Positions 3,465 through 42,772 of a stretch of DNA of 64,000 bases are shown here, piece by piece. The stretch comes from Candidatus Levyibacteriota bacterium (GTDB lineage Bacteria; Patescibacteriota; Microgenomatia; Levybacterales; UBA12049): assembly GCA_016182235.1 (NCBI GenBank), contig JACOXT010000005.1:677-64676 (forward strand), in the 5' to 3' direction. Each line of letters begins with the position of its first letter. Position 1 is the stretch's first letter. Position numbers and translations under genes: made by a program. The notes beneath the pieces are model-generated. The model had not been told where the DNA came from, ran no database searches, and saw only the letters and a program-made list of their open reading frames with translations.

Positions 3465-3725
3465 ATGTCAGTTGAAAGAAGATGGAGAATGCCAATTCCA
3501 AGACCTTATGTATTAGAGAATGATGTCAAACCAGTTAAGTTAGATTATCATTCAGACAACATTCCTAAATCGCATAGAACTCTCTCAAAGAAAAAACGCT
3601 ATGGCTTTAAAGAAAACTTTCGGCAAGGACTAAGACTGTATGGGGGTAATGTAAGGGTTGATGTTGACCTCACGCAATTGCGACTTAGTCCAACTGTACT
3701 ATTTGGAAAAAGTCCTAATTCATAA
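3465..3725 (+). CDS. hypothetical small basic protein (86 aa)
   Basis: strong Shine-Dalgarno aaaggaggtg 7 nt upstream of ATG 3465, which is rare in this window; no family recognised. Confidence 0.45.
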   Translation: MSVERRWRMPIPRPYVLENDVKPVKLDYHSDNIPKSHRTLSKKKRYGFKENFRQGLRLYGGNVRVDVDLTQLRLSPTVLFGKSPNS

Positions 3726-9051: not shown

Positions 9052-10956
9052 ATGCTAGCGCCTTTATCTTGGCTAAAAGAATTTGTTGACATAACATTAA
9101 CGTCTGGTGAATTAGGGGAAAAATTAACCGAAATTGGCCTTGGAGTTGAAAGAATTACAAGGGTTGATAATGATACTATCTTTGAGTTTGAAATCACTCC
9201 TAATCGACCAGATCTACTTTCAATTATTGGGATAGCAAGAGAAATAGCAGCTATCGAAGGCAAGAGGATTAAGTCAAAATCATACGAAATTAAAGTTTCT
9301 CACGCAACAACTCTTCCAATAAAGTTAAATCCAAATTATAAATTATTTCATAGGTGGACCGGAATATCTATTGCAAATGTTTCTATTAAGCCATCTCCGC
9401 AATTTATAAAAGACAGGCTTATAAAAATAGGTCTTAGGCCAATTAATAACGTCATTGATATAACAAACTATGTAATGTTTGAGTTGGGAGTGCCTCTTCA
9501 TGCGTTTGACTATGACGAAATTAAAGGACACGAAATGACGGTTGATCTTGCAAAGGGAGGAGAAAAATTCACATCTGTTGATGAAAAATCCTATCATTTG
9601 CCAAAAGATGCGATTATTATTAAAGATAATGAAAGACTCATAGATCTTGCGGGAATTAAAGGCGGGCTTAATTCAGGTGTAAGTGGTAAGACGAAAAACG
9701 TTTTTCTTCATGTAACAATAGCTAACCCTATGCTAATTAGAAGGGCGTCCATCGCATTGAGCCTCAGAAGCGATGCATCCGCTATTTACGAACGGGGAAC
9801 TAATAAAGGCGGGACAATTGATACGCTAAAACGCGCTGCGACACTCATACAAGAACATGCAGATGGAAAAATAGCAAGTCATCTTTTTGATTTGAAAAAC
9901 CAAGAATTTAAACCATGGAAATTGGCATTGAGGATTTCACGCCTTAATCAAATTATCGGAATAAAAATAGACGAAAAGAAAATAATAGATATTTTAGATT
10001 CGCTGAACTTAAATCCTCATGTCGTCCTGAGCAAGCAAAGCGCGTCGAAAGATCTCATCCTCATAGAATGCACAATCCCAACTTACAGAAACGATCTTAA
10101 AATTGAAGAAGATCTAATTGAAGAAGTTGCGCGTTTATACGGATACAATAATTTTCCAAAAACAATGCCAGTTGGAGAAATTCCAACTAAACGTGTTCCA
10201 TATTTCAAGGATTTTAACATGGAAGAAAATGCAAAAAGTATTCTAACTGCGAGCGGATTTTCTGAAATTTATACTTATAGTTTGGTGGGGGAGGACGATT
10301 TGAAAAGCTTCAATATAAAATCTGAAAACTGCATCAGAGTCGATAACCCAGTAAGTCGTGAATTTGAATATCTAAGACCAACCCTTAAGACAAATCTTTT
10401 AAAAGCTCTAAGACTAAATATGCCAAACTTCAAAAACATAAATCTTTTCGAGCTTGGCAAAGTTTATATAGGAAAACATTTAGATAATGTGAAAGAACAA
10501 TATTTTCTTGCTGGCATCACGAATGTGAAAAACTACTTTGAAGTTAAAGGAACTATTGAGCAACTACTTGAAGATCTGGGAGTAAAGCTTGATCCGACAA
10601 AATATATTGAGGTGTTAGATGAAGGGATATTTTTTGAGTTAAACTTTTCGGAAATTTTGCCTCTTGTAAGTTTAAATAAAAAGTTCAAACCTCTTCCTAA
10701 ATACCCGCCGATTATTGAAGACATGGCAATCGTTGCGAATGCTTCAGTAAAAACTGACGAAATAATAAAAGAAATCAAAAATCAAAATTCGCTTATTGTA
10801 AATGTTTCGCTTTTGGATAGTTTTGAAGAATCACGAACATTTCATGTTGTCTATCAAGATCCCCAAAAAAACTTAACAACAGCTGAGGTCTCCAAAATAC
10901 GCGAAAAAATTATAAATAACCTTAGGGAAAAATTTAAGGTAACTCTGAAAGAATAA
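9052..10956 (+). CDS. pheT: phenylalanyl-tRNA synthetase beta subunit (short form)
   Basis: LSWLKEFV (B1), EITPNRPDLLS, B3/4 and B5 regions, C-terminal PKYPPIIEDMAIV (FDX-ACB-like); the OB-fold tRNA-binding domain usually after B1 seems absent. Confidence 0.92.
   Translation: MLAPLSWLKEFVDITLTSGELGEKLTEIGLGVERITRVDNDTIFEFEITPNRPDLLSIIGIAREIAAIEGKRIKSKSYEIKVSHATTLPIKLNPNYKLFHRWTGISIANVSIKPSPQFIKDRLIKIGLRPINNVIDITNYVMFELGVPLHAFDYDEIKGHEMTVDLAKGGEKFTSVDEKSYHLPKDAIIIKDNERLIDLAGIKGGLNSGVSGKTKNVFLHVTIANPMLIRRASIALSLRSDASAIYERGTNKGGTIDTLKRAATLIQEHADGKIASHLFDLKNQEFKPWKLALRISRLNQIIGIKIDEKKIIDILDSLNLNPHVVLSKQSASKDLILIECTIPTYRNDLKIEEDLIEEVARLYGYNNFPKTMPVGEIPTKRVPYFKDFNMEENAKSILTASGFSEIYTYSLVGEDDLKSFNIKSENCIRVDNPVSREFEYLRPTLKTNLLKALRLNMPNFKNINLFELGKVYIGKHLDNVKEQYFLAGITNVKNYFEVKGTIEQLLEDLGVKLDPTKYIEVLDEGIFFELNFSEILPLVSLNKKFKPLPKYPPIIEDMAIVANASVKTDEIIKEIKNQNSLIVNVSLLDSFEESRTFHVVYQDPQKNLTTAEVSKIREKIINNLREKFKVTLKE
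10021..10056. repeat. GC-rich element gtcgtcctgagcaagcaaagcgcgtcgaaagatctc read in frame inside pheT
   Basis: translated as VVLSKQSASKDL; shares the GTCRTYCTGRG..GATCTC-type ends with the purH element at 15537. Confidence 0.5.
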
Positions 10957-13828: not shown

Positions 13829-15040
13829 ATGGATAAGATTGGGGAATTATTGACTAGGGGAGTTGAAAAGATTTACCCATCAAAAGAAGAGCTTGAGAAA
13901 GCATTAAGAAGCGGGAGAAAATTAAAACTTTATCAAGGTTTTGATCCCACTGGTATTCAGCTTCATATCGGACACATGGTTGGACTTCGAAAACTAAGGC
14001 AGTGGCAGGATTTAGGACACCATGTTATTTTTTTAATAGGAGATGGGACAGGATTGGCAGGTGATCCCTCGGGAAAAAAACACAAAAGAGAAAAATTTCT
14101 AACTCGAGAGGAACTTCGCAAGAATTCTACTGATTATATAAAGCAAGCAGGAAAAATAGTAAGATTTGAGGAAGTAAATCCGGTTGAGATATTGTTCAAT
14201 GGTGACTGGTTAACCAAACTAATACTTTCTGACATTTTGGAAATTGCGGGACATTTTACACTTCAACAGCTCTCTGAAAGAGATTTGTTTACTGACCGAA
14301 TAAAAAGAGGAGAGGATGTTAATCTCCGCGAATTTTTGTATCCGCTACTTCAGGCATACGATTCAGTGGCGATGGATGTAGATTTAGAAATCGGCGGAAC
14401 GGACCAAACTTTCAATATGCTTTGCGGAAGATCATTAATAAAACAAATGAAGAATAAAGATAAATTTGTTATGACAACTCCACTCTTAACTGACTCAAAA
14501 GGTGTGAAAATCGGCAAAACCGAAGGCAATGTAATTGCCCTAACAGACAAGCCGGAAGATCTTTTTGGTAAAATCATGGCACTTCCTGACGATGTAACAT
14601 TAAAAGGATTTGAGTATTTAACGAGTGTGCCAATGGACGAGGTAAAAAAAATTGAACAAAAAATGGATTCCATGAGTCAAAAGAAACGCTTAGCATTTGA
14701 GATTGTAAAAGAATTAAATTCCGACAATGAAGCTAAAAAGGCACAGATTTATTTTGAAAAAACAGTCCAAGAAAAAGAAAAACCATCGGAAATAAAAGCA
14801 GTTGAGTTGCCCACAAGTTTCACATCATCCGCAACTATAGCAGAGGTTCTCAATGCCATAGGCACAGTAAGTAGTATATCTGAGGGCAAAAGGGTAACGA
14901 TTCAAGGAGGTACATCAATAAACGATCAGAGAATTACAGATCCAAATGAACCAATCTACCCCTTTCTAAAAACAGGAGAAGCTTTAGTTCAAACCGGCAA
15001 ACATAAATTTGTAAAAATCATAACTACTCCTGATTCATAA
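13829..15040 (+). CDS. tyrS: tyrosyl-tRNA synthetase
   Basis: HIGHMVGL (HIGH), KIGKTEG (KMSKS-like), C-terminal S4-like domain; track ORF starts at TTG 13823, ATG 13829 preferred. Confidence 0.93.
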   Translation: MDKIGELLTRGVEKIYPSKEELEKALRSGRKLKLYQGFDPTGIQLHIGHMVGLRKLRQWQDLGHHVIFLIGDGTGLAGDPSGKKHKREKFLTREELRKNSTDYIKQAGKIVRFEEVNPVEILFNGDWLTKLILSDILEIAGHFTLQQLSERDLFTDRIKRGEDVNLREFLYPLLQAYDSVAMDVDLEIGGTDQTFNMLCGRSLIKQMKNKDKFVMTTPLLTDSKGVKIGKTEGNVIALTDKPEDLFGKIMALPDDVTLKGFEYLTSVPMDEVKKIEQKMDSMSQKKRLAFEIVKELNSDNEAKKAQIYFEKTVQEKEKPSEIKAVELPTSFTSSATIAEVLNAIGTVSSISEGKRVTIQGGTSINDQRITDPNEPIYPFLKTGEALVQTGKHKFVKIITTPDS

Positions 15041-15067
15041 TTCTTGATTCATGATTCACAATTCATC
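15033..15067. repeat. 7-nt period array (attcNNN x5) across the tyrS stop / purH 5' region
   Basis: attc at 15033, 15040, 15047, 15054, 15061. Confidence 0.7.
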
Positions 15068-15070
15068 TTT

Positions 15071-16663
15071 ATGAAATACGCTCTCTTAAGTGTTTTTGAT
15101 AAAACAGGAATTATTGAACTTGCGAAAAAACTTTTAGATTTAGGGTACAAAATCATCTCAACTGGCGGAACTGCAAAAGAACTTATTAAAAAAAATATTA
15201 AAGTAATACCTGTTCAGGAAATTACTGGGAACCCGGAAAGCTTCGATGGTAGGATGAAGACAATTAGTTTTGAGATTGAATCGGGTATTCTTTTTGATCG
15301 AACAAATAAATCCCACGTTAAAGAAGCAAAAGACCTAAATATAAAGCCAATCGATATTGTTGTCTGCAATCTTTATCCATTTGAAAAAACGATTGCAAAT
15401 CCTAAAGTGTCAGTTGAAACTGCAGTTGAAAATATTGACGTTGGCGGTCCAACTATGATACGTGCTGCCGCGAAGAATTTTAAAAATGTCTTGGTCGTGG
15501 TCGATCCAAAGGATTATCAAAGAGTAATTTCGTTTTGTCATTCTGAGTCACGCCATAGGCGGACGAAGAATCTCGAGAGATCCTTCGCTAATGCTCAGGA
15601 TGACATCCGAAGAGAGCTTGCGGCAAAAGCCTTTGCCCATTTGTCTCTATATGATTCACAAATTGCAAAATTCTTAGAGAAAGAGATTTTTCCTTCGGAA
15701 ATAACCATTCCAGGAAGAAAAGTTAACGATCTTAGATATGGAGAAAATCCTCATCAAAAAGCCTCCTTCTATTTAGAACCAAACACAAACTCTCTCTTTA
15801 AAAACCTTAAAAAAATCGTCGGACGGGAATTATCCTTCGTCAATCTAACCGATATAAACGCAGGGTTAGAATCAGTGAGGCTATTTAGAGAACCTTGTGC
15901 TGCCATAATTAAGCATAATAGCCCATGCGGTATTGCATTAGGAAAAAACATTTCTCAGGCCTTAGAAAGGGCAATTGATGCAGATCCCGAGTCTGCGTTT
16001 GGTGGGACAACTGTACTGAATAAGCCCATGGATTTAAAAACAGCAAAAGTAATTGGAGAATTCAAAAATAAAAAGAGAGCGAATATTGATATAATTGCAG
16101 CGCCGCAAATTACAAAAGACGCCTTGGAATATTTAGTAGAGGTTAGAAAAAGTATGGGAATCTATTCCTTCGGAAAAACTATGAACTATGAACCAAGAGC
16201 TATGAACATCAAGCACATCGCTGGAGGATTTATTCTGCAAACACCTGATAACGATATTGAAAAAGGATTTAGGGCTTGGAAGGTGGTAACAAGGAAGAAA
16301 CCTTCTCCAGAAGAAATAAAACAGATGAAAATTGCTTGGAAATTTATTTCAAGAATTAGGTCGAATGCCGTCATCGTTGTTGACAAAGATTTGCCAATGA
16401 CTCGAGGAATAGGATCTGGACAAACTTCTAGAATTAAGTCTACGAGAATTGCTTTAGAACAGGGAGGAAAATATTCTCAAGACGGCATCCTTGCCAGTGA
16501 CAGCTTCTTTCCTTTCGATGATAGTGTAAAACTTGCTGCCAAATACGGCATTTCGGGAATTGTTCAGCAAGGGGGATCAATAAACGACATTCTCTCAATC
16601 GAAGCCGCAAACAACGCAAATGTCTCCATGGTTTTTACCGGCAGACGCGCCTTCTGGCACTAG
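15071..16663 (+). CDS. purH: bifunctional AICAR transformylase / IMP cyclohydrolase
   Basis: MKYALLSVFDKTGI, STGGTAK, DIVVCNLYPF, NIDVGGPTMIRAAAKN, RYGENPHQ, KHNSPCG, GSGQTSR, ASDSFFPF; track ORF begins at 15044 inside the heptad array. Confidence 0.93.
   Translation: MKYALLSVFDKTGIIELAKKLLDLGYKIISTGGTAKELIKKNIKVIPVQEITGNPESFDGRMKTISFEIESGILFDRTNKSHVKEAKDLNIKPIDIVVCNLYPFEKTIANPKVSVETAVENIDVGGPTMIRAAAKNFKNVLVVVDPKDYQRVISFCHSESRHRRTKNLERSFANAQDDIRRELAAKAFAHLSLYDSQIAKFLEKEIFPSEITIPGRKVNDLRYGENPHQKASFYLEPNTNSLFKNLKKIVGRELSFVNLTDINAGLESVRLFREPCAAIIKHNSPCGIALGKNISQALERAIDADPESAFGGTTVLNKPMDLKTAKVIGEFKNKKRANIDIIAAPQITKDALEYLVEVRKSMGIYSFGKTMNYEPRAMNIKHIAGGFILQTPDNDIEKGFRAWKVVTRKKPSPEEIKQMKIAWKFISRIRSNAVIVVDKDLPMTRGIGSGQTSRIKSTRIALEQGGKYSQDGILASDSFFPFDDSVKLAAKYGISGIVQQGGSINDILSIEAANNANVSMVFTGRRAFWH
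15537..15604. repeat. 68-bp GC-rich palindromic element read in frame inside purH
   Basis: termini gtcattctgag / ctcaggatgac (10 of 11 complementary), inner cgaagaatctc / gagatccttcg; translated as ..HSESRHRRTKNLERSFANAQDD.. in the inter-domain linker. Confidence 0.65.
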
Positions 16664-19541: not shown

Positions 19542-20201
19542 ATGGAGCTCCCAAAACTAAAAAACACAAAACTTTTTGAAGAAGCGTTCACGCATAAGTC
19601 CTATCTTAACGAGGTAAAACAGAAAATACCCTCAAATGAAAGACTCGAGTTTTTGGGAGATAGCATCTTATCATTTGTAGTATCAAGTTTCTTATTCGAA
19701 AAGTACCCAAACTTCAATGAAGGGACACTCACCAACATTAGGTCTCTTTTGGTTAACACGAAGAGCTTATCTATGTTGGCTCGCGAACTAAATATCGGAA
19801 AACTTCTTAAACTCTCCCGCGGAGAAGAAGAGTCAAAAGGAAGAGAGAACGATGCGATTCTTGAAAATAGTTTCGAGGCTTTTGTTGGAGCATTTTTTCT
19901 AGATCAAGGAATCGAAGCCGTAAGGGATTTTTTAGAAAGAGTACTCCTTAATAAAATAAAAAATTTAATAAAAAGTAAATCTTTTAAGGACCCCAAAAGC
20001 ATATTGCAGGAGGTTGTACAGGCAAAAAAACAAAATTCTCCTATTTATAAGGTACTAGAAGAATCAGGACCTGCTCATTCAAAGACATTTAGAGTAGGTG
20101 TTTATGTTAATGAAATTATGGTCGGGGCGGGAATAGGGAAGTCAAAGCAAATCGCAGAATCGTCTGCTGCTAAAATCGCACTTGAGAGAGGAAGTTTTTA
20201 G
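19542..20201 (+). CDS. rnc: ribonuclease III
   Basis: signature ERLEFLGDSIL, ENSFEAFVGAFFLD, C-terminal dsRBD (DPKSILQE..GPAHSKTF). Confidence 0.93.
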   Translation: MELPKLKNTKLFEEAFTHKSYLNEVKQKIPSNERLEFLGDSILSFVVSSFLFEKYPNFNEGTLTNIRSLLVNTKSLSMLARELNIGKLLKLSRGEEESKGRENDAILENSFEAFVGAFFLDQGIEAVRDFLERVLLNKIKNLIKSKSFKDPKSILQEVVQAKKQNSPIYKVLEESGPAHSKTFRVGVYVNEIMVGAGIGKSKQIAESSAAKIALERGSF

Positions 20202-20687: not shown

Positions 20688-21389
20688 ATGAAGATTTCGA
20701 TCTTAACGCTTTTCCCCGAAATGTTTTCAGGGCCTTTTGATTACTCCATTATAAAAAGAGCAAAAGAAAAAAATATTGTCAATATAGACTTCGTAAATAT
20801 TCGTGAATTTGGCATTGGCAGACATAAGATCGTTGACGACAAACCATACGGAGGAGGAACTGGCATGATATTAAGAGTGGATGTCTTAGAAAGAGCTATT
20901 TTGGCAGCAAAAGAAAATGGTCCCTCTGGAGCTGACGGACAAAAAGTTATTCTTTTAGGAGCGCAGGGCAAAACCTTTAATCAAAAATACGCGGAAAGCT
21001 TCTCTAAACTACAACATCTTATTCTTATTTGCGGACACTATGAAGGGGTTGACGAAAGAATCAAGAATTTTATAGATGAGGAGATATCTATTGGAGATTT
21101 CATAGTTACTGGAGGTGAGATCCCCGCAATGACTATTACAGATGCTGTAGTACGACTCAAAAAAGGGGTTCTAAAAGAAGGTGTCACTGGGTCAGAATCA
21201 TTTTCACCTCTTCTTGAATATCCTCAATACACAAGGCCAGAAGTTTTCAGAAATATGTCTGTACCAAAAGTATTAACAAGCGGAAACCACAAAGAAATTC
21301 TTAAATGGAGAGAGAAAATTGCGCTTCAAAATACTAAAAAACTTCGTCCGGATATTCTAAGATCGAGCATTACTCGAGAAAAGGATTAG
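20688..21389 (+). CDS. trmD: tRNA (guanine37-N1)-methyltransferase
   Basis: ILTLFPEMF, VDDKPYGGGTGMIL, ICGHYEGVDERI, GDFIVTGGEIPAM. Confidence 0.93.
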   Translation: MKISILTLFPEMFSGPFDYSIIKRAKEKNIVNIDFVNIREFGIGRHKIVDDKPYGGGTGMILRVDVLERAILAAKENGPSGADGQKVILLGAQGKTFNQKYAESFSKLQHLILICGHYEGVDERIKNFIDEEISIGDFIVTGGEIPAMTITDAVVRLKKGVLKEGVTGSESFSPLLEYPQYTRPEVFRNMSVPKVLTSGNHKEILKWREKIALQNTKKLRPDILRSSITREKD

Positions 21390-26304: not shown

Positions 26305-26777
26305 GGGTTATTAACAGTGAAAGACCAATTTGTAGTTCCTCCCGTGCAGAGAGCATCATTTGAAGGATCTTTTTGAGAGTCATTAACATTTTCTAAACAT
26401 GAGACTATGCTGTATGTAGCGCCTCCTCCTCCCACTGCATAAGTATATACATAATCACCTGTATTTAATGGGTCGCATGGAATTTCCCGCATGTAGATTA
26501 CTGCTCCTGCGCTATCGGTGAAAGGGTTAGTGGGATCATCGCAAGTATTTGGAAAATCGCCTGGATCACCACCAACCACAACTGGATATAAGCCACTATC
26601 TGATCTGTAAAATTCCAGAGCCGAACGAATTTGACCAAGGTCAGATTTACGCACTCCGTCTCTGGTTCTTTGCCTTACTCCAACAAAATTAGCCGTAAGA
26701 AGCCCAGCCAAAAGCCCGATGATGATAATTGCCACCAAAAGCTCAATCAAAGTAAATCCTCTGGATTTACGAATCAT
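26301..26777 (-). CDS. GspG/PulG-like pseudopilin / type IV pilin-like protein
   Basis: MIRKSRGFTLIELLVAIIIIGLLAG from ATG 26777 gives a canonical short leader; track ORF extends to 26846 through heptad repeats. Confidence 0.8.
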   Translation of the reverse strand: MIRKSRGFTLIELLVAIIIIGLLAGLLTANFVGVRQRTRDGVRKSDLGQIRSALEFYRSDSGLYPVVVGGDPGDFPNTCDDPTNPFTDSAGAVIYMREIPCDPLNTGDYVYTYAVGGGGATYSIVSCLENVNDSQKDPSNDALCTGGTTNWSFTVNNP

Positions 26778-26798
26778 GAATAACGAATCATGAATTAT
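26771..26798. repeat. 7-nt period array (gaatcat/gaataac/gaatcat/gaattat)
   Basis: gaat at 26771, 26778, 26785, 26792. Confidence 0.65.
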
Positions 26799-26819
26799 GG
26801 TTATTAGGTTCTTTTTTTT

Positions 26820-26851
26820 ATTCATAATTCTTAATTCCTGATTCATAATTC
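26820..26851. repeat. 7-nt period array (attcNNN x4-5) between two pilin genes
   Basis: attc at 26820, 26827, 26834, 26841, 26848. Confidence 0.65.
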
Positions 26852-27358: not shown

Positions 27359-28149
27359 TTATATAGGAAATAGGAATCCCAGCATTATCTGCATGATTTG
27401 CTCTCCTAAAAATATAGTTAATAATGTCCCAAAAACTAAAAAGGGACCAAAAGGAATTTTTGTTCCGTGAAGTCTTTTTCTCTTCCATATAATTAGTATG
27501 CACCCGACAATGGCTCCTGTCAAGAACGATATGTACAAGGCAACAGCTATCTTTGGGAATCCCAAAACCAGCCCTAGAAGAAATGACAACTTCACATCGC
27601 CAAACCCCATCCCGCGACCTTTGGTTATCAGAAATAAGAACAAGAAGAAAAGAAAAGCCCCACCCCCGGAAAGCAAATGATTTAAGATTAAAGAATAATG
27701 ATTAAAGAATAGATATGGAAAAGAAACGAAGATCGAGGGAGCTACGATCGCGTCGGGAATTATCCCGTATTTCAAATCAGTAAAAAAAACCACAATTAAT
27801 GACGAGATAATAATAAAATAGTAAACCAAAGTAATATAATCCAAAATTCTTAATTCCTGATTCATGATTCTTGCTCCGAGAAAAACAAATACTAACACGA
27901 ACAAGATTCCCGTTGTTAACTCAACTACCGGATAATACAGAGATAGGGGAGTATGGCAATAGCGGCATTTGCCTCTTAGGATCAAGAACGAAAATAAAGG
28001 AATAAGATCATACCATGCTAAATCTTTCTTGCATTTATCGCAGTGAGATCTTCCTCCAAATACTCCTTCGCCTCTTGGCAATCTGTCAACCAACACATTC
28101 AAAAAACTCCCAATTGCAGTTCCAACTAAAAAGATAAAAATAATCTCCA
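27359..28149 (-). CDS. pilD: prepilin peptidase / N-methyltransferase PilD
   Basis: GSFLNVLVDRLP, Cys-rich CDKCKKDL..CRYC, FTDLKYGIIPD, GMGFGDVKL (two catalytic Asp boxes); track ORF reaches 28243 and overlaps the RAYT gene and a REP; GTG 28149 is a plausible start. Confidence 0.85.
27679..27712. repeat. 7-nt period array read in frame inside pilD
   Basis: gatt/gaat at 27679, 27686, 27693, 27700, 27707; encodes ..NHYSLILNHLL.. Confidence 0.55.
27846..27873. repeat. 7-nt period array (attcNNN x4) read in frame inside pilD
   Basis: attc at 27846, 27853, 27860, 27867; encodes ..RIMNQELRIL.., nearly the same DNA as 26820-26851. Confidence 0.6.
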
Positions 28150-28200: not shown

Positions 28201-28871
28201 TGCTCTGTAATATATATCCTATGCCTGCCATAAATTCTGTCAAAATTTACGTTGAAAATGGCTATTATCACATTTACAATCGGGGAATTGATAAACGAGA
28301 AATTTTTATAGACCACAAGGATTATATGGTTTTGCTTAGTCTTTTGAAGCGATATCTTGTGCCTTGGGAAAATAGCAAGGTCCGACCTCGTTATAGGATA
28401 GATCTTCATGAAAAAATTCAGCTAATCTCATATTGTCTCATGCCCAACCATTTTCATCTTATGATGAAACAATTCACGAAAGACGCGATTACAGAATTTA
28501 TGCGAGCTTTAACCAATAGCTACGTACTATACTTTAACTCACGGTATGAACGAATTGGACCTCTTTTTCAAGGAAGATATAAGGCCGTTCTTATCGAAAA
28601 GGAGTCATACTTTCTTCATCTTACTCGCTATATTCACACAAATCCGCTGGATCTTGGCTTTACAAGGTCGGACCTTGCAAAGTATAGGTATTCGAGTTAC
28701 GGGGAATTTATTGGAGAAAGAAAGACAGAATGGATTCACTTTGGGGAAATATTAGATTATTTTAAAAGCAAACAAAAAATGAGCGAGCAAGATATACTTT
28801 CGTATCAAAGTTTCGTAGAAGACTCGATAGGGGATTCAAAAGAAATTCTTGAAACACTAAGTATTGATTGA
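28200..28871 (+). CDS. REP-associated tyrosine transposase (RAYT; IS200/IS605 TnpA-like Y1 HUH transposase)
   Basis: YHIYNRG, LMPNHFHLMM (HUH), LFQGRYK, LTRYIHTNPL (catalytic Tyr region), YRYSSYGEF; single gene, no tnpB partner; flanked by REPs. Confidence 0.85.
   Translation: MLCNIYPMPAINSVKIYVENGYYHIYNRGIDKREIFIDHKDYMVLLSLLKRYLVPWENSKVRPRYRIDLHEKIQLISYCLMPNHFHLMMKQFTKDAITEFMRALTNSYVLYFNSRYERIGPLFQGRYKAVLIEKESYFLHLTRYIHTNPLDLGFTRSDLAKYRYSSYGEFIGERKTEWIHFGEILDYFKSKQKMSEQDILSYQSFVEDSIGDSKEILETLSID
28377..28389. repeat. REP copy 2 (aaggtccgacctc, one mismatch) inside the RAYT ORF
   Basis: encodes ..SKVRPRY.. Confidence 0.7.
28663..28677. repeat. REP copy 3 (caaggtcGgaccttg) inside the RAYT ORF
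   Basis: perfect 15-nt palindrome; encodes ..TRSDLAK.. Confidence 0.8.
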
Positions 28872-29847: not shown

Positions 29848-31056
29848 CTATTGGATAGTATTTGTGAGTTGATAAATCGGCATTATGATAGAGAATACCA
29901 GAAACGCGACTCCAATACCCAAAGCTACCATAATGGCCGGTTCAAGGGCTGTTGTTAGTATTTTTACTGACTGGTCAACTTCGTTCTCGAAGTACTCCGA
30001 AGCCCTAACGAGTGTTTCATCGAGTTTCCCTGTTTGCTCTCCTATTTTGACGAGTTCCACAAGATTTTGCGGGAAAAGATTATAGATAGACATCGCATCC
30101 CCCATTGTTATGCCTTTTTCTATTCTCTTGGCGACATCCAAAACCGCATTTCTATAAAGAACATTTCCTGTGGCGTCCGATGCTTCTTTCAAAGATTCTA
30201 TAACAAGAGTGCCGGATCCCAGCATTGCCCCTAACGTTCTTGAAAATTCTGAAAGAATTGAGTTTTTTATAATTTTGCCAAAAATCGGCATTTTTAATAA
30301 GATGCCATCTATTACAATTTTGCCTTCCAATGTCCTATGCCAGCGCGTAAATAAATAAATGGAGATAATAATAATTCCCAAAACAATTGGCCAAAACATG
30401 ATAGTCCAATTTGAAAGAGTTATTAGTATTAGAGTAGGAAGAGGAAGTTCAACATTTAAGTTTTCATAAAGGCTCGAGAGCTGAGGAATTACAAAAATCA
30501 TCATAATAAAAGTTACAGCAATCATCATAGTAACAACTATAACAGGGTAGGCGAGTGCTGCCTTTATAGTCCCCTTAAGTTTCTGCTGTTTTTCCAGTGT
30601 ATCGGCAAGTCTGAGGAGCGCTTTGTCTAAAAGCCCCGAACTTTCTGATGCTCTTATTAGCGACACGTAGACTGGGGAGAAAATCTGCGGATACTTGGAT
30701 AAAGCCATAGAAAGACTCTTGCCTTCCTCAATGTCCGCTGTCATACTTTCTAAAACTTCTTTTAGAGCGTCGTTATTTACTTGATTTTTAATAATCTCCA
30801 AAGATCTGATAAGTGTAATCCCGGATGTAAGCATGGACGACAAATGCCTCGTAAATGCCACAATGTCTTTTGATTTAACGCGGCTTGAAAATATAGGAAT
30901 AAAATCCGATAATTTAGTTCCTTCTTGCCTTGATATTGTAATCGGAATAAAATCCTTGCTTCGAAGATATCCCGCCGCTTCTTTTTCGTCCCGCGCTTCA
31001 ATTAGTCCGTTTAGGAATTTGCCATCTCTGGTTACTGCCTTGTAATAAAGCGTCAT
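29848..31056 (-). CDS. pilC: type IV pilus platform protein PilC
   Basis: two GspF-type repeats, three TM regions, MTLYYKAVTRDGKFLNGLIEA N-terminus typical of PilC; track ORF (to 31110) extends into a palindromic element, ATG 31056 preferred. Confidence 0.9.
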   Translation of the reverse strand: MTLYYKAVTRDGKFLNGLIEARDEKEAAGYLRSKDFIPITISRQEGTKLSDFIPIFSSRVKSKDIVAFTRHLSSMLTSGITLIRSLEIIKNQVNNDALKEVLESMTADIEEGKSLSMALSKYPQIFSPVYVSLIRASESSGLLDKALLRLADTLEKQQKLKGTIKAALAYPVIVVTMMIAVTFIMMIFVIPQLSSLYENLNVELPLPTLILITLSNWTIMFWPIVLGIIIISIYLFTRWHRTLEGKIVIDGILLKMPIFGKIIKNSILSEFSRTLGAMLGSGTLVIESLKEASDATGNVLYRNAVLDVAKRIEKGITMGDAMSIYNLFPQNLVELVKIGEQTGKLDETLVRASEYFENEVDQSVKILTTALEPAIMVALGIGVAFLVFSIIMPIYQLTNTIQ

Positions 31057-31075
31057 AAGTAATATTGCACATACC

Positions 31076-31147
31076 GTCATTCTGGCTTGCCCAGAATCTC
31101 TCAGTGTCATGGGGATTCTGGATGCGCCTTCGGCTTACCAGAATGAC
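31076..31147. repeat. 72-bp nested palindromic element between pilT and pilC
   Basis: four mutually complementary arms: gtcattctgg 31076-85, ccagaatc 31091-98, gattctgg 31114-21, ccagaatgac 31138-47. Confidence 0.7.
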
Positions 31148-31165
31148 GAGAAAATCATAGTAGTT

Positions 31166-32233
31166 TTATTTAACCAATCTCAGAAAATCTTCCTGATGCA
31201 AAGAATAACTTTTTCCAACTTCCAAAGATATACTTCCGGACAATACTAGAGCCGATAATGAAGAATCCAGAGTAATCATTCCTTTGTCTTTGGATGTCTG
31301 TATAACCGAGTCTATAAGGTGTGTTTTTCCCTCCCTTACTATACTTGCCACAGCAGGCGTGCCAAGAAGAACCTCAACTGCCGGAACTCTTCCTCCATTT
31401 ATCATTGGCAGCAAACGCTGACTAACTATTCCTTTAAGAGTGGCCGCCAGCTGAATTTTTATCTGGGACTGCTGACTGGCTGGAAAACTATCTATTATTC
31501 TATCTATACTCTGAGAGGCCGAGTTCGTATGAAGACTTGAAAATACCAGATGACCTGTTTCAGCGATAGTAATAACAGTTGCCATTGTTTCAGGGTCCCT
31601 CATTTCTCCTACCAAAACCACATCCGGATCCTCCCTTAAAGCGGATCTTAGAGCAAAGTCCCAGGAATGAGTATCTTGATTCATTTCTCTTTGGGAGATT
31701 ATGCTTTTCCCGTTTGGATACACATATTCTATAGGGTCTTCTATAGTTAAAATATGAACCGCTCTATTAAGATTGATTTCGTTAATTATTGAGGCAATAG
31801 TTGTTGATTTTCCATGACCCGTCGGGCCTGTAACCAAGATTAGTCCTTGCTTCAACTCCGAGAAAGAGTGGAGAATGTTGGGCATATGGAGGTCTTCTAT
31901 TGTTAGAATAGACGGGGGGAACAAACGAAACGCGCCGGATATATATCTCCTTTGATAATATAAATTAGCTCGGAACCTTCCCAAATTGCCATATGCTCCT
32001 CCGCCAAAACCAAAGGAAAAATCCAATTCCTTATTGGCAAGTAGAAGCTCCTTTTGAGATGGGGTTAAAAGCGAAAAAACCATTATCTCAATGCTCTGAG
32101 GAGTCAGCGGAGCATGACCCGCCACATATTCAAGTGCGCCATCTACCCTGATGGTTGGAGGGATTCCAGCCAAAAGATGTAGGTCCGACGCGCCTCTTTT
32201 AATTGTTACCTTCAAAAGTTCCTGTATTTCCAT
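31166..32233 (-). CDS. pilT: twitching-motility retraction ATPase PilT
   Basis: GASDLHL, GPTGHGKSTT (Walker A), ILTIEDPIEY, VVLVGEMRD, GHLVFSSLHT. Confidence 0.92.
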   Translation of the reverse strand: MEIQELLKVTIKRGASDLHLLAGIPPTIRVDGALEYVAGHAPLTPQSIEIMVFSLLTPSQKELLLANKELDFSFGFGGGAYGNLGRFRANLYYQRRYISGAFRLFPPSILTIEDLHMPNILHSFSELKQGLILVTGPTGHGKSTTIASIINEINLNRAVHILTIEDPIEYVYPNGKSIISQREMNQDTHSWDFALRSALREDPDVVLVGEMRDPETMATVITIAETGHLVFSSLHTNSASQSIDRIIDSFPASQQSQIKIQLAATLKGIVSQRLLPMINGGRVPAVEVLLGTPAVASIVREGKTHLIDSVIQTSKDKGMITLDSSLSALVLSGSISLEVGKSYSLHQEDFLRLVK

Positions 32234-38325: not shown

Positions 38326-39338
38326 TAGCAAAACCGATAATAGATAAAAAAACCTGGGAATCTTTCCTGGATCTTCATGAAGAAGCAAACTTTTTGCAAT
38401 CATGGTATTGGGGAGAATTTCATAAAAGTCTAAGTAACGAAATTCAGCGAATGGGATTTTATGAAAATAATAAGCTTGTTGGCGTTATGCTTTCTATTGT
38501 TGAAAACGCGAAGCGCGGGCGATATCTAGCAGTTCCAGGAGGACCAATTATCGATTGGACAAGGTCCGACCTTGTCGAGCATTTCGTGCAGGAATGTAAA
38601 AAGATTGCGAAAACATACAAGTGTGTTTTCGTAAGAGTCCGCCCTCAGCTTGTTTCAGATGACTTTTCGAAAAGCTTGTCTAAAAGACAAGGATTTACTA
38701 ACGCCCCAATGCACTTACACGCTGAGTTAACATCACAACTTGATATAAGAAAAACCGAAGATGAACTTCTAGGTCAAATGAGAAAAACAACCAGATACGA
38801 GATTAAAAAAGCAATTAATTTAGGTATAAAAGTAGTTGCCTCCAAAGACCCCGGTCAAATAAAAGACTTTTATGATTTACAGATTGAAACCTCAAAAAGG
38901 CAAGGATTCATACCATTTTCCTACAAATATTTATATGAGCAATTTAAAATATTTGCGCTTAATGATAAAGCGGTTTTATATACAGCTTATTATGACAGAA
39001 AAATTCTTGCTCAGGCTTTTATAATTTTTTATGGGCAGGAAGCTGTTTATCATTATGGGGTAAGTACAGAGGAAGGGAGAAGATATCCTGGCGCCTATTT
39101 AATACAATGGGAGGCAATTAAAGAAGCACAGAAAAGAGGAATGACGCGATATAACTTTTGGGGGGTTTCTCCTGAGATGAGCAAAAACCATAGGTTTAGA
39201 GGTTTATCTCTTTTCAAAAGAGGCTTTGGAGGACAAGATATAGAATATCTTCATGCACAAGATTTAATAATAAATTACCCAAGATATATTATTAACTACG
39301 TAGTCGAAACCATAAGAAAAAAAACAAGAAACGTTTAA
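38322..39338 (+). CDS. FemAB-family peptidoglycan peptide-bridge transferase (FemX/MurM-like)
   Basis: FLQSWYWGEF, TRYEIKKA, YHYGVSTEEGRRYPGAYLIQWEAIKEAQKRGMTRYNFWGV. Confidence 0.85.
   Translation: MIAKPIIDKKTWESFLDLHEEANFLQSWYWGEFHKSLSNEIQRMGFYENNKLVGVMLSIVENAKRGRYLAVPGGPIIDWTRSDLVEHFVQECKKIAKTYKCVFVRVRPQLVSDDFSKSLSKRQGFTNAPMHLHAELTSQLDIRKTEDELLGQMRKTTRYEIKKAINLGIKVVASKDPGQIKDFYDLQIETSKRQGFIPFSYKYLYEQFKIFALNDKAVLYTAYYDRKILAQAFIIFYGQEAVYHYGVSTEEGRRYPGAYLIQWEAIKEAQKRGMTRYNFWGVSPEMSKNHRFRGLSLFKRGFGGQDIEYLHAQDLIINYPRYIINYVVETIRKKTRNV
38558..38576. repeat. REP copy 6 (gacaaggtc-c-gaccttgtc, 19-nt perfect palindrome) inside the FemAB-family ORF
   Basis: same core as the RAYT-flanking palindrome, 9.7 kb away; encodes ..WTRSDLVE.. 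Confidence 0.8.
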
Positions 39339-42138: not shown

Positions 42139-42659
42139 TGGACATTAAGAAATTAAACGCCGGGAAAAATGCGCCGGAAGAAATAAATGTTTTTATAGAA
42201 ATCCCCCAAGGAGTAAGTGTAAAGTATGAATTAGATAAAGATAGCGGCGTAATCTTTGTGGATAGATTTCTTTTTACAGAAATGGAATATCCATTTAATT
42301 ATGGTTTTGTGCCGGGAACTTTGGCCATGGATGGAGATCCTGTAGATGTTTTAGTGTTATCAAGCAAACCTGTAATACCAGGCGTTGTAATTCTTTCAAA
42401 ACCAATCGGAATGCTTGAGATGGAGGACGAGAAGGGAATTGATAACAAGGTAATTGCAGTTCCTGTTCCAAAAGTCGACCAAAAATTCAAAAATTATAAT
42501 GATATCAATGATATCCCAATCAAAACAAAAGAGGAAATCAAATACTTTTTCGAAAATTACAAAAAAACCGAACCGGGAAAATGGGTCAAGGTAAAAGAGT
42601 GGAAAGGAAGGGAAGCGGCGATTGAAGAAATAAGAAAAGCCATTGGAAACAAAAGTTAA
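42138..42659 (+). CDS. ppa: inorganic pyrophosphatase (family I)
   Basis: [35 protein letters not shown]. Confidence 0.92.
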
Positions 42660-42772
42660 AAGTCAAAGGTTAAAATTCAAAATTACAAGTAAAAATTCAA
42701 AAGTAAAGAATCTGAAAATTTTAACTTTTAAGTTGTATTTTTGACTTTTGATTTTTGAGTTTTGAGTTTATT
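42652..42772. repeat. about 120-bp array of 17 heptads, A-rich half then T-rich half (imperfect long inverted repeat)
   Basis: aaagtta/aaagtca/aaggtta/aaattca/aaattac/aagtaaa/aattcaa/aagtaaa/gaatctg/aaaattt/taacttt/taagttg/tattttt/gactttt/gattttt/gagtttt/gagttta; between ppa and gyrA. Confidence 0.7.

Follow-up and report, generated by a model that had tools for sequence, protein, structure and literature searches.

Short palindromic repeats with an unpaired tag beside a stem were grouped by Di Nocera, De Gregorio & Rocco (BMC Genomics 2013; PMC3733652) into a superfamily of CGTC-tagged repetitive extragenic palindromes (REPs), divided into four families. According to that paper, each unit has a terminal unpaired CGTC tag, often TGTC (CCTC is allowed), a stem starting with AT and a 3-nt tail. 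Published stems are fully paired over 8-9 bp, loops measure 4-5 nt and the tail consensus is CCA. The units mostly form HH dimers, often heterodimers, with spacers from 1-2 to 100 nt, and they have no dedicated transposase. They are mostly found in intergenic DNA between co-directional genes. Intragenic dimers read in frame, encoding 20-30 aa, have already been described in several phyla, so that this behaviour is not new in itself. Neisseria dRS3 and the Rickettsia palindromic elements (RPEs) of family RPE-6 belong to CGTC-1, and RPE-4 belongs to CGTC-4. Here, we describe a palindromic element located in the purH gene of a 64-kb stretch of bacterial DNA (the window, from contig JACOXT010000005.1; all positions are those of the window). 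The window belongs to a metagenome-assembled genome (MAG) named Candidatus Levybacteria bacterium, a lineage that we take to be part of the Candidate Phyla Radiation (CPR).

We propose, with a probability of about 0.85, that the element is an inverted HH dimer of CGTC/TGTC-tagged REPs settled in a length-tolerant surface loop of PurH from this CPR bacterium. Such a palindrome would be non-autonomous, either selfish or neutral, and would spread inside bacterial genomes as well as from one to another. Protein-coding palindromes are usually presented as a speciality of Rickettsia; the same class would act alike here, in a CPR bacterium with a small gene-dense genome. A literature search found no report of REPs in CPR genomes, and full-text searches with the DNA and peptide strings returned only chance matches to primers. 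Besides the CPR host lineage, three points are new. These are the conserved tandem G·A in the stem, the reuse of one PurH loop by at least four REP families, and the silent-site similarity between copies of the element, which far exceeds that of the host gene.

The palindromic element in purH

The purH gene is well identified. Its 530-aa open reading frame (ORF) matches the Pfam domains MGS (75.7 bits) and AICARFT_IMPCHas (299.9 bits), and it matches PurH in the PDB with E = 4e-98. The element has a 68-nt core at 15537-15604, or 70 nt with the flanking T and A. The core is ordered GTCATTCTGAG-TCACGCCATAGGCGGA-CGAAGAATCTC-GA-GAGATCCTTCG-CTAATG-CTCAGGATGAC. The outer arms (GTCATTCTGAG / CTCAGGATGAC) and the inner arms (CGAAGAATCTC / GAGATCCTTCG) are each complementary at 10 of 11 positions, and T15536 and A15605 form one further pair of the palindrome beyond the core. 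GC content is 0.53 at the element and 0.27-0.47 around it. The original prediction had described a GC-rich 68-bp palindrome with these two pairs of arms, and apart from the extra base on each side the sequence reads exactly so. Read as mRNA, the element is predicted to fold strongly: an 88-nt stretch gave -33.7 kcal/mol (z = -3.5), a value equalled by 0 of 200 shuffled sequences.

The halves are best regarded as distinct REP units, one of 39 nt and the other of 29 nt, with a 2-nt spacer between their tails (Table 1). Scores were obtained with a covariance model, R1, built from 57 units and run on the window and its relatives. Unit 1 is composed of the tag TGTC, a stem ATTCTGAG / CGAAGAAT, a 16-nt loop and the tail CTC. 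Its stem has six Watson-Crick pairs and a tandem G·A, and a small hairpin, CGCC-ATA-GGCG, sits within the loop; the hairpin energy of the unit is -14.4 kcal/mol. Unit 2, on the reverse strand, reads TGTC-ATCCTGAG-CATTAG-CGAAGGAT-CTC and has a 6-nt loop. Its 27-nt sequence GTCATCCTGAGCATTAGCGAAGGATCT is found again, identical at 27/27 positions, in the purH gene of a relative (L324) and also occurs in an IMG/VR contig (L028).

Other searches around the element were negative. The 11-mers of the arms have no other match in the window with 0-1 mismatch, except one at chance level. The flanks (TTTT/.../ATCC) contain no direct repeat such as the target-site duplication of a miniature inverted-repeat transposable element. 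Rfam at gathering thresholds gave no match anywhere in the window (no tRNA, rRNA or riboswitch); at E <= 10, region 15400-15750 gave only chance-level matches (E 0.9-9.9). A hammerhead reading of CUGAG..CGAAG was rejected because the core CUGA-G...C-GAA lacks CUGAUGA and has no Rfam match.

Since palindromes are prone to misassembly and we are dealing with a MAG, an assembly or binning artefact, either a chimeric join or a collapsed repeat, has to be considered. However, the same PurH with the identical 68-mer is present in an NCBI MAG contig (78.8 kb) and in the Logan assemblies SRR12113420 and SRR12113430. Agreement of three assemblies speaks against an artefact, as do the continuous ORF, the gene order pheT-PBP-tyrS-purH-recG common to eight relatives, and the orthologues holding the same repeat family at the same place. 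We therefore give an artefact virtually no weight.

Judged from its sequence, the anatomy of the element appears to match the CGTC/TGTC-tagged class (PMC3733652). The TGTC tag occupies 15536-15539 in unit 1 and 15605-15602 (reverse strand) in unit 2. Both stems start with the pairs A-T and T-A (ATTCT../..AGAAT and ATCCT../..AGGAT). They have eight stem positions, of which six are Watson-Crick and two form the tandem G·A (CTGAG/CGAAG), whereas published stems are fully paired. The commonest form of the family has a 5-nt loop, but the loops of this copy measure 16 and 6 nt against the published 4-5 nt. A 3-nt unpaired tail ends both units, here CTC instead of the published CCA, and the units form a tags-outside HH dimer with a 2-nt spacer. 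In-frame intragenic dimers and the lack of a dedicated transposase are also shared. On the other hand, the host range is far wider here and includes CPR bacteria and viral contigs. The supplement of PMC3733652 gives the peptides CHSRESGDP, VIPAKAGI and RHSELVSGS, and for R. conorii VIPAKAGI, CHSRESGDP and VIPRACSGI; none of its intragenic peptides is of the CTGAG type. The purH element possibly represents a new stem family.

The likeness to RPEs is closer than an analogy and probably reflects membership of a common class. RPEs, too, are palindromes that became fixed in frame within the housekeeping genes of a genome that is small and gene-dense, where their translation adds surface loops to the proteins (Ogata et al. 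2002; Claverie & Ogata 2003, cited in PMC3733652). The frames xGT-CAT and GTC-ATx are also those of the R. conorii peptides CHSRESGDP and VIPAKAGI, and in vivo expression of RPE-containing proteins was reported for Rickettsia (cited in PMC3733652). However, the R. conorii peptides of that supplement imply stems unlike ATYCTGAG/CGAAGRAT, which places the purH element in none of the RPE families named there. RPE-1 is a longer, unrelated element, and the host is a member of Levybacteria (CPR) instead of an intracellular alphaproteobacterium. RPE-like behaviour in a very different lineage, as originally proposed, is supported by the absence of these residues from solved PurH structures, distant purH loci and most close relatives, by the multi-copy family to which the element belongs and by the AlphaFold2 model described below.

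The dRS3 repeats of Neisseria are related as CGTC-1 REPs (PMC3733652). They differ by being intergenic and clustered in arrays. We take their architecture to be CGTCATTCCC-N-GGGAAT, in Neisseria intergenic mosaic element (NIME) arrays. dRS3 repeats are integration sites of filamentous prophages through an IS110/Piv-type enzyme; no comparable association with prophage integration was seen for the purH element.

The PurH loop and its inserts

The element is read in frame and without a stop in the PurH ORF (..FCHSESRHRRTKNLERSFANAQDDI..), as originally predicted, and encodes residues 156-178, CHSESRHRRTKNLERSFANAQDD. The frame is xGT-CAT-TCT-GAG at the 5' end and CAG-GAT-GAC at the 3' end. The core length, 68, is not a multiple of 3; 23 codons are covered when the first T of TGT is counted. 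From sequence reasoning, two of three frames are open at the element ends and the third contains TGA. The element could have been fixed in purH because two of three frames are open at each end and this copy is read in frame.

The stable hairpin within the ORF raised the question of whether the element is skipped, by a programmed bypass like that of T4 gene 60 or mitochondrial 'byp', or cut from the mRNA. In Magnusiomyces mitochondria, mobile GC-rich palindromes are bypassed in translation. In purH, however, the palindrome is in frame and has no stop. About 30 insert-bearing PurHs are uninterrupted ORFs with inserts of varied lengths, although the protein-level search is blind to interrupted genes. 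Matched take-off and landing codons are absent (TTT/TGT upstream, GAC/ATC downstream), and no ribozyme or intron family matches. Skipping or excision is hardly credible.

Loop lengths were compared in the 120 closest PurH homologues (63-72% identity). The segment from DPxDY to LAAKAF has 20 aa in roughly 85-90 of them and 34 aa here. The net gain over the baseline loop is thus +14 aa, which corrects the originally expected insertion of about 23 aa. Since 23 codons account for only 14 additional residues, about 9 native loop residues must have been replaced. Solved PurH structures in the PDB show a gap opposite the element. As a negative control, 80 distant purH loci were collected in a metagenome scan with PurH, which gave almost exclusively distant PurHs (~40% identity), and none of them contains a REP in the loop. 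This restricts the hotspot to the present REP-rich clade, and the absence of homologous residues from unrelated orthologues agrees with an insertion.

The loop aligns to about residues 158-170 of human ATIC, which is also longer than bacterial PurHs at this loop. On the basis of avian and human structures, we take this region of ATIC to fall in the IMP-cyclohydrolase domain (1-199), one helix before the domain junction. The element thus lies near the end of this domain, in a loop that a single helix separates from the junction. The original prediction was right in placing the element in a tolerant loop, as supported by AlphaFold2 and by the relatives, but it is not exactly between the two halves of PurH.

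AlphaFold2, run with a 101-sequence alignment, gave a mean predicted local distance difference test (pLDDT) score of 91 and a predicted template modelling (pTM) score of 0.89. Values of pLDDT below 50 are limited to residues 60-62 and 166-176. The insert starts as an extension of helix 146-162 and stops just before helix 179-202. The model therefore predicts a disordered excursion between two helices, with a confident fold for the rest of PurH, and this low-pLDDT excursion is in line with a surface-exposed insert. Residues invariant across the 101 homologues are all kept, e.g. K63, Y102, D123, K135, K281 and H282, which we take to be known catalytic residues of ATIC. Translation of the enzyme would include the 23 codons of the element, giving a largely disordered excursion that replaces ~9 loop residues and leaves the fold undisturbed. 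Such an insert is likely harmless or near-neutral, and it would persist because the loop tolerates extra length.

Recognizable REP-encoded peptides are present at this loop in about 30 of the 120 homologues and belong to at least four families. The CTGAG type (CHSE..RSFANAQDD) and the CGTC-2 type (CHPELVSGS..MLKQVQHD) are each found in 8 PurHs, the CTGG type (RHSGERSD..GQARMT) in 7 and the HPEQSE type in 2-3; P0004, which also has a CTGAG-type motif, is counted in two classes. Several REP remnants occupy the loop as well. The peptide CHPELVSGS equals the CGTC-2 peptide RHSELVSGS published in PMC3733652. Besides ragged N-termini and three small variable spots, PurH has no other internal insertion site in the 120 homologues; the three spots show no clear REP peptides and one possible remnant (P0061). 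In the purH genes of eight syntenic relatives, intact dimers are present in L323, L324 and L327, a dimer of another family in L328, a single unit in L329 and decayed copies in L325 and L326. Left junctions vary, lying 6, 8 or 9 residues after DY, and right junctions are identical (..D/I-R-x-x-LAAKAF) or shifted. In a weakly resolved neighbour-joining (NJ) tree, carriers are interspersed with baseline-loop sequences. We infer that the loop is reused mainly because selection tolerates insertions there.

These ~120 related PurHs constitute a natural experiment, with at least four stem families in one loop and copies ranging from intact to fully decayed. The set is suited to dating and defining REP junctions, to distinguishing transposition from templated copying, and to measuring how an enzyme tolerates an extra loop.

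Could the 23 residues be a lineage-specific PurH extension, selected as an interaction or regulatory loop, with the palindromy being secondary? Frame and junctions are conserved in relatives (CHSE...RSFANAQDDI in P0001, P0009, P0010, P0079 and P0037), and helix 146-162 is predicted to continue into the beginning of the insert. However, it is the nucleotide sequence that is conserved, third positions included. The DNA matches a cross-phylum non-coding repeat consensus, exactly in both 11-mers of both units. Moreover, the middle of the peptide differs from one relative to another, other relatives carry unrelated peptides, and residues 166-176 have pLDDT below 50. A selected protein extension is thus very improbable.

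A comparison of third codon positions was informative. Identity between the window and L323 or L324 is 0.42 or 0.39 over purH and 0.90 or 0.74 over the element; in L325 and L326, it is down at background. The excess at silent sites indicates copies much younger than the divergence of the gene, or homogenized, or constrained as DNA or RNA. The last case would imply that the hairpin is kept for an RNA or DNA role, either as a translational pause between domains, as an RNase III or mRNA-stability element or as a protein-binding site, the peptide being incidental. This would fit the strong structure (-30 to -34 kcal/mol, z = -3.5) and the silent-site conservation of the copies in three purH orthologues, well above that of the host gene. 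Stem covariation and the conserved tandem G·A, an RNase III gene in the window (19542-20201) and the position just upstream of the domain junction are also favorable. Against such a role, units occur in all kinds of context: in intergenic DNA, in genes other than purH, in phage contigs and in more than 15 phyla. No insert is present in about three quarters of related PurHs and others have unrelated stem families at the loop, the L325 and L326 copies have decayed to background, and dimer lengths, spacers and loops are not conserved. We regard a retained RNA or DNA function as improbable, albeit less so than a protein function, and favor the REP dimer tolerated by the loop.

The spacer between tyrS and purH also gathers REP units in relatives (L328 3559-3617; L323 7442-7469). 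In L328, it is the ATGAC head of a REP unit that supplies the called start codon of purH (ATG at 3612).

Distribution and spread of the repeat family

A search with the half-unit pattern GTCATYCTGAG-N(4-24)-CGAAGRATCTC found it in at least 120 IMG/VR stretches. The commonest unit, seen 60 times among 152, measures 27 nt, has a 5-nt loop and is usually preceded by T; loops range from 4 to 30 nt across units. The dimer pattern is present in at least 120 genome contigs, which represent more than 15 phyla; among those listed, none belongs to the present MAG. Hosts include Acidobacteriota, Omnitrophota, Chloroflexota, Planctomycetota, Alpha-, Gamma- and Deltaproteobacteria, Clostridia, Cyanobacteria, Melainabacteria, Bacteroidota/Ignavibacteria, Verrucomicrobia, Armatimonadota, Cloacimonadota and others.

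Dimer statistics were drawn from 105 matches (103 distinct, with a few duplicate or overlapping). Lengths are 55-106 nt and spacers 1 to 25 nt, the latter being the search maximum. The two loops of a dimer are identical in only 22. The flanks obey Y/GTCAT..ATGAC/R, with T (72) or C (29) on the 5' side and A (71) or G (26) on the 3' side. Lengths modulo 3 are distributed 36/35/34, i.e., multiples of 3 are not preferred in the general population. Heterodimers of a T/A unit and a C/G unit amount to 44 of 103, which is about random pairing; a heterodimer preference as protection against long perfect palindromes was accordingly set aside as uninformative.

The hairpin is supported by covariation. 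At the Y/R stem position, where the search pattern permitted all four combinations, the pairs are C-G (205), T-A (172), C-A (5) and T-G (2). In 57 aligned 28-nt units, selected for at most 2 stem mismatches, changes on both sides are observed at 5 of 8 stem pairs, and the tandem G·A (stem positions 6-7) is kept in 47. Positions A5, T6, A24 and T25 do not vary among the 57 units, although that pattern had served to select them. In sister families, GTCAT and ATC are retained and the stems are CTGG/CCAG, CTGAAC/GTTCAG or CCGAG/CGAGG. Some sister subfamilies, in the PurH loop and elsewhere, have fully paired stems. A common recognition factor is suggested by the 11-mers, which stay nearly identical in more than 15 phyla and in viral contigs, and by the tandem G·A, which is conserved over the same range.

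Search for the element with BLAST revealed no match in annotated phages and a single partial match in annotated plasmids, on plasmid NC_014533.1 of Gloeothece verrucosa PCC 7822. There (L332, 221624-222452), tandem repeats of ~30 bp, each ending in the head motif GGCTCAGGATGACAT, come after a REP-like unit in unannotated intergenic DNA of a cultured organism. In the Thermoanaerobaculia MAG SMAG_U15922 (L125, L132, L138, L149 and L169), many near-identical 95-96-nt dimers of the CTGAG family were observed with conserved spacers and conserved flanks (TTGTTCAC/../GNCTTGCG). The dimer multiplies there as part of a slightly larger repeat.

The window contains a RAYT-like gene of the Y1/IS200 type (RAYT, REP-associated tyrosine transposase; Table 1), as do two relatives. 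REP doublets of the REPIN-RAYT systems (REPINs; Nunvar et al. 2010; Bertels & Rainey 2011) share with the purH element two inverted REP units forming one long hairpin and an unpaired tag beside the stem, as expected for the substrate of an HUH/Y1 enzyme. They differ in the tag, YGTC here and not GTAG. REPINs are also lineage-specific and vertically inherited, whereas the family of the purH element is nearly unchanged across phyla. The RAYT-like gene was considered as a mobilizer and the link found to be unsupported, because the palindrome that flanks it, CAAGGTCSGACCTTG, differs from GTCAT units. In this palindrome family, CAAGGTC(C/G)GACCTTG brackets the gene (28188, 28880, 29021) and is also found inside it (28376, 28663) and at 38560-38574, with 6 copies in the window where 0.06 would be expected. 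The downstream palindrome and the 30 nt that continue it (CAAGGTCGGACCTTGTATATGAGAGAATACAGCTTTCCTCTTG) are repeated 141 bp further on, as does TAATTAGGCCCCTAATAAAT a few bases later. The RAYT-like homologues of L327 (3721-4362) and L329 (4260-5198) are flanked by other hairpins (ACACCCCGAGGGTGT).

How such dimers spread can be formulated in three ways. The unpaired tag adjoining a hairpin suggests a single-strand mechanism. Trans-mobilization of a single-stranded hairpin by an HUH/Y1-type enzyme reading the unpaired YGTC tag and the stem is our tentative preference, at somewhat less than even odds. Template switching or gene conversion between REP copies, which we hold to be rather unlikely, would better explain that native residues are replaced and not merely displaced. 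Junctions coincide with native look-alike codons, GAC-AT in the empty-site purH of L330 and S-K-D in PheT (..ISKDVI.. in relatives). With the small net gains, these codons make templated copying or replacement fit at least as well as an HUH mechanism. A third, doubtful idea is that the PurH loop is targeted and not just tolerant, CGTC-type REPs integrating by sequence- or structure-directed replacement. REPs would then home onto a native (Y)GTC or GAC(R) motif or onto a pre-existing REP remnant, through an enzyme that recognizes the YGTC tag and the tandem-G·A hairpin and is common to bacterial phyla and phages. This is suggested by the 3' junction ..xD/I-R-x-x-LAAKAF shared by different families, by the native GAC-AT at that position in empty-site relatives and by net gains smaller than the element in purH, pheT and the ATPase. 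If true, REPs would be a regular source of new protein loops in gene-dense CPR genomes.

Several observations weigh against the proposed REP dimer and its spread. First, PurH gains 14 residues where 23 are encoded, and the same shortfall is seen in pheT and in an ATPase of L330; a gain below the encoded length is not predicted by a simple transposition model. Second, the exact stem family is represented by one copy and one decayed unit in the window. Third, the 16- and 6-nt loops and the G·A pairs deviate from what PMC3733652 describes. Fourth, no transposase recurs near the units: clustering of the 5,687 stop-to-stop ORFs located up to 3 kb from 402 units yielded only shared phage genes and an ABC ATPase, and the RAYT-like gene of the window is flanked by the different palindrome mentioned above. 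Fifth, a single ancient insertion may have been followed by turnover of families through gene conversion and by repeated loss, since the NJ tree is weakly resolved at 63-72% identity. Finally, the high conservation at silent sites could come from selection on RNA or DNA structure.

Other units and repeats in the window

R1 matches five units in the window: the two of purH, two at 31075-31148 and one at 10020-10056 (Table 1). In 94 kb from eight relatives, it matches 19 units, of which 12 are in the purH loop, 1 in a P-type ATPase and 6 in intergenic DNA. These other units in the window and its relatives speak indirectly against the originally raised objection that the element might be unique in the genome.

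Table 1 Features of the window
Feature	Positions	Strand	Score or remark
purH (bifunctional AICAR transformylase / IMP cyclohydrolase, 530 aa)	15071..16663	+	intact
Whole REP dimer (tags outside, 'HH'), T/GTCAT...ATGAC/A	15536..15605	+	
REP unit 1	15536..15574	+	R1 32.3 bits, E = 6e-7
Spacer GA (2 nt) separating the tails of the two units	15575..15576	+	
REP unit 2	15577..15605	-	R1 35.9 bits, E = 5e-8
Second REP dimer, tags outside, sister stem family	31075..31148	+	R1 22.8 and 19.2 bits
Decayed single CTGAG-family unit, in frame in pheT (9052-10956, +)	10020..10056	+	R1 15.0 bits, E = 0.06
Y1/IS200-like, RAYT-like gene	28221-28871	+	Pfam Y1_Tnp 36.9 bits; NCBIfam REP_Tyr_transpos 43.8 bits (below the cut-off of 80)

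The second dimer, GTCATTCTGG-CTTGC-CCAGAATCTC ... GATTCTGG-N16-CCAGAATGAC, suggests that this genome carries several copies of the class. It occupies the intergenic DNA that separates pilT (31166-32233, -) from pilC, 18 nt past the pilT stop and ~20 nt before the likely pilC start (MTLYYK.., ATG at 31056). Mechanical ORF calling runs pilC through the dimer as 'MTLRDSGQARMT..', which is a false N-terminal extension. Such repeats thus create spurious N-terminal extensions in annotation, and the recurrent motifs CHSE.., ..AQDD, ..MLKQVQHD and ..GQARMT should not be read as homology.

The unit in pheT, TGTCGTCCTGAGC-N13-CGAAAGATCTC, is read as HVVLSKQSASKDL in PheT. About 10 of the residues derived from it are missing from the PheT of four relatives in the alignment. 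At least two housekeeping genes of the window, purH and pheT, have therefore been hit. In L327 (2490-2606), the same PheT loop contains a different in-frame palindrome (..ALKPHLRGVASQHLGGGRLKAMTPPRWTSK..) with the hairpin CACCTCCGAGG/CCTCGGAGGTG (-40 kcal/mol), and a copy of the RAYT-flanking hairpin is located elsewhere within pheT (1752). In L330 (10921-10948), a CGTC-2-type unit is in frame in the P-type ATPase (..QEKERILKQVQNDNAKGKVAMVGDGINDAPAL..; ILKQVQND). Compared with a typical CopA, this unit presumably adds only ~2 residues, native codons having seemingly been replaced. With palindromes in frame in pheT, the ATPase and purH, such inserts look like a regular feature of these small genomes.

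The window also contains intergenic arrays with a 7-bp period, ATTCATG / ATTCTTG / ATTCATA ('TGATTCA'), at 15033-15057, directly upstream of the purH start, at 26771-26851 and 27853-27870, and also at 21058 and 38170. ATTCATG-type arrays gave 12 matches against 3.45 expected, a number reached by 0 of 100 shuffles, and the repeats at 26771-26851 make a 29-nt inverted repeat. Finally, an A-rich imperfect inverted repeat was observed at 42647-42769, with arms of ~39 nt that are 74% complementary and contain AAAAGT(T/C)AAAAG-like words.

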